Positions 44,107-44,956 of a stretch of 64,000 bases of DNA are shown one piece after another. Origin of the DNA: Escherichia coli. Lineage in GTDB: Bacteria > Pseudomonadota > Gammaproteobacteria > Enterobacterales > Enterobacteriaceae. Where the stretch lies: assembly GCF_965641715.1 (NCBI RefSeq), contig NZ_OZ282453.1; one strand, 5' to 3'. Position numbers and translations under genes: made by a program. Under the pieces are notes generated by a model. The model was not told the origin of the DNA, made no database searches, and worked only from the letters and a program-made list of their open reading frames with translations. Every line of letters starts with the position of its first letter. Positions within the stretch are counted from its first letter, which is position 1.

Positions 44107-44143
44107 GATTTGCTCATATTGCTGTCAAAGTGCGCTTTGTTCA

Positions 44144-44241
44144 TGCCGGATGCGGCGTGAACGCCTTATCCGGCCTACAAAACCCTTCAAATTCAATAAA
44201 TTGAAGAGTTAACGTAGGCCTGATAAGCGTAGCGCATCAGG
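44144..44241. repeat. BIME: two REP elements in opposite orientation 3' of gcd
   Basis: gccggatgcggcgtgaacgccttatccggcctac (44144..44178) and gtaggcctgataagcgtagcgcatcaggc (44214..44241) match the REP consensus. Confidence 0.85.
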
Positions 44242-44259
44242 CAATTTCGTATTTATCAT

Positions 44260-44778
44260 TTACTCATCCGAAAATTTCAGCGACAGGAGTGCATTTTTCA
44301 TTAGTGTCTGATACTGCGTAACGGCATTTTCAGGCATAGAAACCTCCCCCGTGAGCAGCTTACCGTCCCGCGATGTAATCAACCTTAAATTATTGACTTT
44401 CCCTGGTATCAAACTATATGAAAGCAGCCATGCTTTATGCCCATCCACCACCACTTCTTCAGCCTGGGGAGCAGAATTTTTCAGGGAGTTAAGCGTTATT
44501 TCCTTGAATCTATCCAGGTGCTCGGCAGGCAAAGACTGATGCCATTGCGTAATATTAAGATGTACCCGTTTTACTTCATCGTAATAATTTGCCTGTGGTT
44601 CCTGGGGCTGTTGCAGTGTCGCTGCCATTTCCTCTGACATAACATGAAGATTTTCGGGGATTGCGATACTCAATTTAAAGTTTGGGAGAGACTGGCTTTT
44701 CAGCTTTATGTCGGCGTTAGCATTCGCAACCATAAACGAAAGCAGAAACGTCAGAATCAGATGTCGAAACGTAATCAT
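44260..44778 (-). CDS. Hypothetical secreted protein (172 aa with predicted signal peptide); apparently absent from the K-12 gcd-cueO spacer
   Basis: ORF 44260..44835; likely start ATG 44778 with aaaaaggga SD; N-terminus MITFRHLILTFLLSFMVANANA then a hydrophilic ~150-aa domain; no motif I recognise. Confidence 0.55.
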   Translation of the reverse strand: MITFRHLILTFLLSFMVANANADIKLKSQSLPNFKLSIAIPENLHVMSEEMAATLQQPQEPQANYYDEVKRVHLNITQWHQSLPAEHLDRFKEITLNSLKNSAPQAEEVVVDGHKAWLLSYSLIPGKVNNLRLITSRDGKLLTGEVSMPENAVTQYQTLMKNALLSLKFSDE

Positions 44779-44925
44779 AAATTTCCCTTTTTGATTATTG
44801 TGGTGGTGCCTGCAAGGTATTACGACACAAAACACGTAATCAGGTGCCCCAGCATTCCATTGTGTTTGCCCAGTTTATGCTTTTCAGACTTATAATCTCT
44901 CACCTGAGACTATTTTTAAGAATTT

Positions 44926-44949
44926 CGCCTGTATTACAAAATACAGGCG
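44926..44949. terminator. Perfect hairpin 3' of cueO (cgcctgtat-tacaaa-atacaggcg)
   Basis: 9-bp stem, 6-nt loop, 7 nt past the cueO stop. Confidence 0.6.
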
Positions 44950-44956
44950 TCGCACG

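Follow-up and report, generated by a model that had tools for sequence, protein, structure and literature searches.

A rare cassette between gcd and cueO of Escherichia coli encoding a predicted exported relative of the DUF1795/DcrB-PsbP-Mog1 superfamily

In the Escherichia coli strain analysed here, the convergent genes gcd and cueO are separated by 850 bp, as opposed to 201 bp in E. coli K-12. This difference raises the questions what the additional DNA encodes, how it came to occupy this site and what its product may do. The analysis concerned a window of 64,000 nucleotides (contig NZ_OZ282453.1), whose coordinates are used below. An initial annotation, made from the letters of the window, had described an islet of about 650 bp carrying an open reading frame for a 172-aa secreted protein in which no domain was recognised.

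Structure of the gcd-cueO spacer

The spacer (44107-44956) is flanked by the conserved genes gcd, which encodes a PQQ glucose dehydrogenase (41716..44106, plus strand), and cueO, which encodes a multicopper oxidase of 517 aa (44957..46510, minus strand, with its stop codon at 44957-44959). Its length of 850 bp agreed with that given in the initial annotation, as did the shorter K-12 spacer (locus L010: gcd end at 8409, cueO end at 8611), which had been given as approximately 0.2 kb. The window was aligned with K-12, five carriers and strain PS10-3, which lacks the islet but is otherwise nearly identical. In this alignment, a segment of 708 bp (44259-44966; hereafter, the cassette) takes the place of 56 K-12 spacer bases, to which it is unrelated or barely related, and of the last cueO codons. 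The window and K-12 differ by a replacement, not by a mere insertion, with a net gain of about 650 bp, the size that had been claimed for the islet. GC content of the cassette is 43%, as compared to 54-55% in the flanks. The right junction falls within the final codons of cueO and thereby alters the C-terminus of CueO by one residue, with GFTTV* in the window and one Thr less (GFTV*) in K-12. CueO ends in GFTTV in E. coli and Pseudocitrobacter carriers and in GFTSA in E. whittamii.

The remainder of the spacer (44107..44258) is a REP/BIME region that also occurs in K-12 and is present here as a donor-type allele: alignment and sliding identity gave approximately 92% identity to K-12 and PS10-3 in this region, versus approximately 100% in the neighbouring genes. 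REP palindromes were located at 44145-44227 (inverted repeats I1 and I2), next to the open reading frame as the initial annotation had stated. The REP element at 44179-44221 exceeded the gathering threshold of Rfam ES036 (CssrF sRNA) and matched naRNA4 weakly. These matches probably reflect REP similarity, as both families are REP-derived, and a structured RNA in the spacer was rejected because such families accounted for all Rfam matches.

The cassette contains a single open reading frame with any support, here called gene X (44260..44778, minus strand), whose intact 172 codons encode a predicted periplasmic-protein precursor. A Shine-Dalgarno-like AAGGGA (44784..44789) precedes its ATG by 5-6 nt, in line with the plausible ribosome-binding site noted at first. 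Open reading frames of 62, 66 and 83 aa on the plus strand of the cassette overlap X in antisense orientation. A longer, 191-aa form starting at a GTG was rejected: it would place 19 residues before the signal peptide, and RefSeq uses the 172-aa ATG form in strain 32F4.

Distribution, recombination history and constraint

As a check, the initial annotation had proposed a search for the islet in MG1655 and a panel of E. coli genomes, with presence of the open reading frame at this position in MG1655 as a refutation. In a sensitive blastn search, the cassette was present in three of 5426 complete E. coli genomes and absent from 5423, and its three carriers all belonged to one Swiss calf/farm set; the islet was thus not refuted by an occurrence in MG1655. 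As gcd was found in 5423 genomes at identities of up to 99.5%, the window represents an ordinary E. coli. In the carriers, X is annotated by NCBI as 'hypothetical protein' (WP_114006819.1 is a 98% identical form). Among 5.8 billion protein clusters, only two close clusters were found: one from Escherichia, with 13 variants and with the exact protein of the window on 35 contigs, and one from Pseudocitrobacter, with 88% identity. A single-protein scan of 100,044 species representatives detected close copies in only E. whittamii and Escherichia sp. E1V33. Close copies occupy the same site in E. whittamii, other non-coli Escherichia and Pseudocitrobacter, and the order cueO-X-gcd was identical in every carrier of a close copy. 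A genome (L005, GCA_047471715.1) with flanks approximately 93% identical to those of E. coli encodes an X identical to a member (P0001) of the E. coli cluster, and across the region it is approximately 94% identical to both E. whittamii and E1V33. A literature search on the cueO-X-gcd locus returned nothing relevant.

Synonymous divergence of X was far below that of its flanks. Between the window and Pseudocitrobacter, dS was 0.115 for X, 2.24 for cueO and 0.91 for gcd; corresponding values were 0.14, 0.45 and 0.32 for E. whittamii and 0.009, 0.44 and 0.35 for L005. As judged from synonymous divergence, this contrast showed that the cassette moved recently by homologous recombination, that the copy in the window came from a non-coli Escherichia lineage, and that cassettes of this type have also crossed between Escherichia and Pseudocitrobacter. 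Since PS10-3, which lacks the islet, is approximately 100% identical to the window in both flanks, the exchanged tract is limited to about 44100-44967, and in this strain its left reach is marked by the last gcd codon, AAT (Asn). Carriers differed in the point on the gcd side at which donor-type sequence begins, which indicated that recombination occurred more than once. Gcd ends (44101-44106) in Asn in the window, L004, L018 and L019, and in Lys in K-12, L001 and L005; in the carrier L001, the switch from K-12-like to donor-like sequence occurs only at about 44170.

Apart from the REPs, no direct or inverted repeats flank the cassette, and no integrase, transposase or other mobility gene and no tRNA target was found, so that it lacks the features of a mobile element or island. 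A transposon or MITE was rejected because of the missing terminal repeats, a phage origin because tblastn gave no hits in 50,697 phage records, and a plasmid origin because only three plasmid homologues, with 27-29% identity and in unrelated contexts, were found. Together with the dS contrast, the lack of mobility features showed spread by homologous recombination through the conserved flanks. The initial annotation had pointed to the REP elements as frequent indel sites; the data did not bear this out, and showed instead an old occupant of the site that came back into a few E. coli lineages by homologous recombination through the flanks.

That occupant is not confined to close relatives. In Silvania sp. 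(L025, L012), the cueO-gcd site holds a homologue 36% identical to X; in another lineage (L026) the homologue between cueO and gcd is 41% identical, and on a partial contig (L021) 36-37%. Identity to the proteins of the window is 91-94% for Gcd and 80-89% for CueO in L025, L012 and L026, and 83% for the last 30 residues of CueO, the only ones on the L021 contig. Copies linked to cueO grouped together in a neighbour-joining tree built without bootstrap. The low identity of X next to far better-conserved CueO and Gcd showed that an X-family gene is an old, unusually fast-diverging occupant of the cueO-gcd site in Enterobacteriaceae, which mainstream E. coli lacks. For types with 36-48% identity, the wider species range rests on metagenome contigs and AFDB names. 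More distant homologues lie near csdA-csdE (Limnobaculum), near mscS, PTS and aminotransferase genes (metagenome contigs) or on three plasmids, and no partner can be deduced from such varying neighbourhoods. On the Citrobacter farmeri IncF conjugative plasmid NZ_CP077292.1 (L023), two distant X-family members (5926-6465 and 12220-12462) flank a chaperone-usher fimbrial operon, and the homologue on a Morganella plasmid (L022) has a fimbrial gene and a DotU T6SS gene in its vicinity.

Informative pairs of X sequences gave dN/dS values of 0.33-0.49, about ten times higher than those of the flanks (0.01-0.06), and the closest pair gave 1.19, a value derived from only 5 changes. An excess of synonymous changes was nevertheless significant (binomial p = 0.003 and 0.03), and nearly all variants, which differ by up to 21 residues and come from three genera, retain the full 172-aa frame. 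The exception is Escherichia sp. E1V33 (L018 6001-6519, NZ_RHJI01000003.1), whose X carries a nonsense codon (Q29*), indicating that the gene can decay. The only products of the E1V33 lineage in the databases are truncated, at 122 and 126 aa (P0030, P0035). Rarity in E. coli, this nonsense allele, the elevated dN/dS and the lack of a recognisable promoter would also suit a decaying remnant that has no present function and persists only through its recent arrival. Such a remnant is, however, hard to reconcile with the maintained frame and the synonymous excess, with the persistence at the site of orthologues of similar length, equipped with signal peptides, despite genus-level divergence with saturated synonymous sites, and with the confidently predicted fold described below; we consider it distinctly improbable. 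From the pattern of substitutions, X appears to be under weak but real purifying selection and to be dispensable.

Export signal and fold of protein X

The N-terminus of X, MITFRHLILTFLLSFMVANANA, is followed by DIK. It comprises an n-region with Arg5, a hydrophobic core (LILTFLLSFMV) and A-N-A before Asp23, features of a Sec-dependent signal peptide of the SPase I type that is encoded by codons 1-22 (44713..44778, minus strand). No lipobox Cys was found, nor a Cys at any other position of the protein. These features, read from the sequence, showed that X carries a predicted Sec-type export signal. Cleavage of the precursor after Ala22 would leave a mature protein of about 17 kDa, soluble in the periplasm, with a predicted pI of about 6, no Cys, 5 His and 4 Met. 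The signal peptide proposed in the initial annotation was thereby borne out; its term 'secreted' held with respect to export, and release from the cell is less likely than a periplasmic location.

When X was searched alone, Pfam, NCBIfam, PHROGs and PADLOC gave no significant matches, including none to PF08786 (DcrB) or PF01789 (PsbP); in Pfam, PsbP was reached below threshold (E 0.015) and DcrB was not hit. NCBIfam, PHROGs and PADLOC scans of X together with nine relatives likewise gave nothing meaningful. An exhaustive phmmer search of 1.84 billion representatives identified 19 relatives of 170-200 aa with 25-36% identity. One of 18 relatives matched Pfam DcrB (E 4.9e-4). Every aligned member of the family begins with either an AxA-type signal peptide or a lipobox, the latter in three distant members. 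Only M1, P41, P104 and S166 are invariant, and no Cys, His or Met is conserved in the alignment. A profile built from 18 homologues was significantly similar to a founding member of the superfamily, DcrB, among PDB sequences (6e8a, E 4.2e-6; 13cz, E 1.3e-5), and the match spanned the whole domain (profile positions 21-170).

An AlphaFold model of X (pLDDT 87.9) has the alpha/beta sandwich of the superfamily, with an antiparallel sheet backed by helices. Structure comparison of X gave the highest scores with CyanoP (15.6) and PsbP (14.4), followed by MTC28 (12.2), LpqN (11.9), Mog1 (11.7), the Eag protein PA0094 (11.5), TplEi (10.9), DcrB (10.6) and Tsi3 (9.6), and Foldseek results agreed with this comparison. 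The best AFDB50 matches, from Kluyvera (40% identity, TM 0.84), Limnobaculum and Serratia, are named 'DUF1795 domain-containing'. Remote homology and the confident predicted model together showed X to be a remote, putatively exported member of the DUF1795/DcrB-PsbP-Mog1 superfamily, which replaces the earlier impression of a product without a domain.

Alternatively, X might be an orphan periplasmic immunity protein or decoy directed against a lipase or muramidase effector of a T6SS or against a colicin, or a modifier of phage sensitivity. An arms race would explain fast divergence (between genera, 36-41% identity for X versus 91-93% for Gcd), patchy distribution and horizontal exchange. Raised dN/dS, low GC content, the occurrence of X as a single gene in varying contexts and the location of one plasmid homologue near the DotU gene are compatible with this idea, as is the reported connection of DcrB itself with the injection of phage DNA (10.1101/2020.10.28.356139, citing Samsonov, 2002). 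However, in none of the cueO-linked loci does an effector, T6SS or toxin gene adjoin X. A cognate effector gene next to X, or a match to an immunity family model such as those for Tsi3 and Tli4/TplEi, was not found; PADLOC gave no match, and the matches listed in the Pfam scans included neither Tli4_C nor Tsi. Moreover, the best matches in structure and sequence are PsbP and DcrB instead of immunity proteins, and overall dN/dS is below 1. An immunity or decoy role therefore appears unlikely.

Expression, role and comparison with known systems

A consensus scan detected no sigma-70 promoter in the stretch from cueO to X. The cueO stop codon is immediately followed by a hairpin (44926..44949, minus strand) with a perfect 10-bp stem and a 4-nt loop. 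The initial annotation had placed the open reading frame just past a cueO terminator hairpin on the same strand; strand and hairpin were as described, but the hairpin lacks a U-tract and was not called by a terminator scan. It would therefore terminate transcription weakly at best, and transcripts of cueO could run on into X. To judge from this arrangement, read-through from the cueO promoter, which CueR controls, may account for part of the transcription of X. In Pseudocitrobacter (L002), 40 bp of the cueO-X spacer (window 44812-44851), which include an imperfect palindrome (ATTACG...CGTAAT), are missing; this piece may have a regulatory function or simply reflect an indel.

In Silvania (L025), the cueO-X spacer measures 83 nt and no hairpin was found between the two genes (6056-6144); the sole strong terminator, a palindrome, lies after X and before gcd (6687-6718), a layout that suggests a putative cueO-X operon. 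Such a layout, the same-strand order of cueO and X in at least four divergent lineages and, in the window, a hairpin without U-tract and no promoter found for X would fit a partner of CueO (or Gcd), in the form of a PsbP-like extrinsic factor that is co-transcribed under CueR/copper control and stabilises or loads the multicopper oxidase. The analogy is with PsbP-family proteins, which support the metal cluster in photosystem II. In L026, by contrast, a hairpin and a promoter-like site of its own precede X. Almost all E. coli live without X, as do, by extension, most bacteria that have cueO; more distant homologues do not lie beside cueO, and broad conservation of gene order in Enterobacteriaceae means that the linkage can be historical. 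Conserved metal ligands were not found, as X has no Cys and the family no conserved His or Met, and a copper role thus gains no support from the sequence. A functional CueO partner is very unlikely in our estimation, and the broader conjecture that the X family would represent ancient PsbP-like CueO partners, which were co-transcribed with cueO, tuned or stabilised its metal centres in the way that PsbP supports the Mn cluster of photosystem II, and were lost in most lineages, is a long shot.

The overall explanation that we consider reasonably probable is that of a rare, recombination-borne accessory cassette with one functional gene, X, whose product is a non-catalytic periplasmic binding module. 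An X-family gene is an old resident of the cueO-gcd site in Enterobacteriaceae, and the version in the window arrived recently from a non-coli Escherichia lineage. It came in a homologous-recombination patch of about 1 kb, with one end in the REP region next to gcd and the other in the last codons of cueO, and no mobile-element machinery was involved. Expressed in part by the read-through discussed above, X would be synthesised with its Sec signal peptide, cleaved after Ala22 and retained in soluble form in the periplasm, where it would be dispensable and subject to weak purifying selection. Eag proteins grip hydrophobic helices and LpqN acts in envelope biogenesis. By analogy with DcrB, LpqN and other exported proteins with this fold, X most likely acts without catalysis, and a face of its beta-sheet may bind a protein segment or a hydrophobic envelope ligand. 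The missing sigma-70 promoter, the sub-threshold Pfam match, the raised dN/dS, the Q29* allele and the lack of a shared neighbourhood among distant homologues count against this explanation.

The cassette is a minor curiosity and not a system of a new type; the superfamily of X is known, if poorly characterised. For annotation, the 'hypothetical' or 'orphan' products of E. coli, E. whittamii and Pseudocitrobacter can now be described as predicted exported, soluble DcrB relatives with a DUF1795/PsbP fold. The locus further provides a clean, small example of a single gene that, without mobility functions, crosses species and genera by homologous recombination in its flanks, and that diverges to 36-41% identity at a site whose neighbouring genes remain 80-93% identical. 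Were X a CueO partner or an immunity protein or decoy, interest would be wider; neither reading is required by the findings.

DcrB, an inner-membrane lipoprotein of E. coli and Salmonella (PF08786, DUF1795), is the superfamily member matched by the X-family profile. It is lipid-anchored and encoded by a core gene elsewhere on the chromosome, whereas X is a rare accessory gene whose product, with an SPase I site and no Cys, should be soluble. Identity of X to DcrB is approximately 17-20%; with no lipobox, no Cys and a Pfam score below threshold, X was rejected as DcrB proper. DcrB and YciB have been connected with membrane fluidity and lipoprotein maturation (Mychack and Janakiraman, 2021, as cited in PMC9487459), and DcrB with sensitivity to phages C1 and C6 and with synthetic lethality with yciB (10.1101/2020.10.28.356139 and PMC9487459). 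PsbP, CyanoP and PnsL1, lumenal extrinsic proteins of PSII and NDH, share 12-17% identity with X, with sub-threshold Pfam matches, and are photosynthetic, while X occurs without photosynthetic context. Eag/SciW proteins (DUF1795) are cytoplasmic T6SS effector chaperones that lack a signal peptide and are encoded beside prePAAR/Rhs effectors (10.1101/2020.10.28.356139). X was rejected as an Eag chaperone because it has a signal peptide, neighbours cueO and gcd, and adjoins no effector gene. Neither the exported mycobacterial Mog1/PsbP-fold proteins LpqN, MTC28 and Apa nor the T6SS immunity proteins Tsi3 and TplEi have detectable sequence similarity to X, and their genomic contexts differ. The closest likeness is to relatives that are likewise uncharacterised. 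Homologues from Limnobaculum (23-28% identity, TM 0.8) agree with X in length and signal peptide, although their genes adjoin csdA-csdE instead of cueO, and the nearest annotated protein, A0A447MLC1 of Kluyvera intermedia, combines the same agreement in length and signal peptide with 40% identity and a TM of 0.84.
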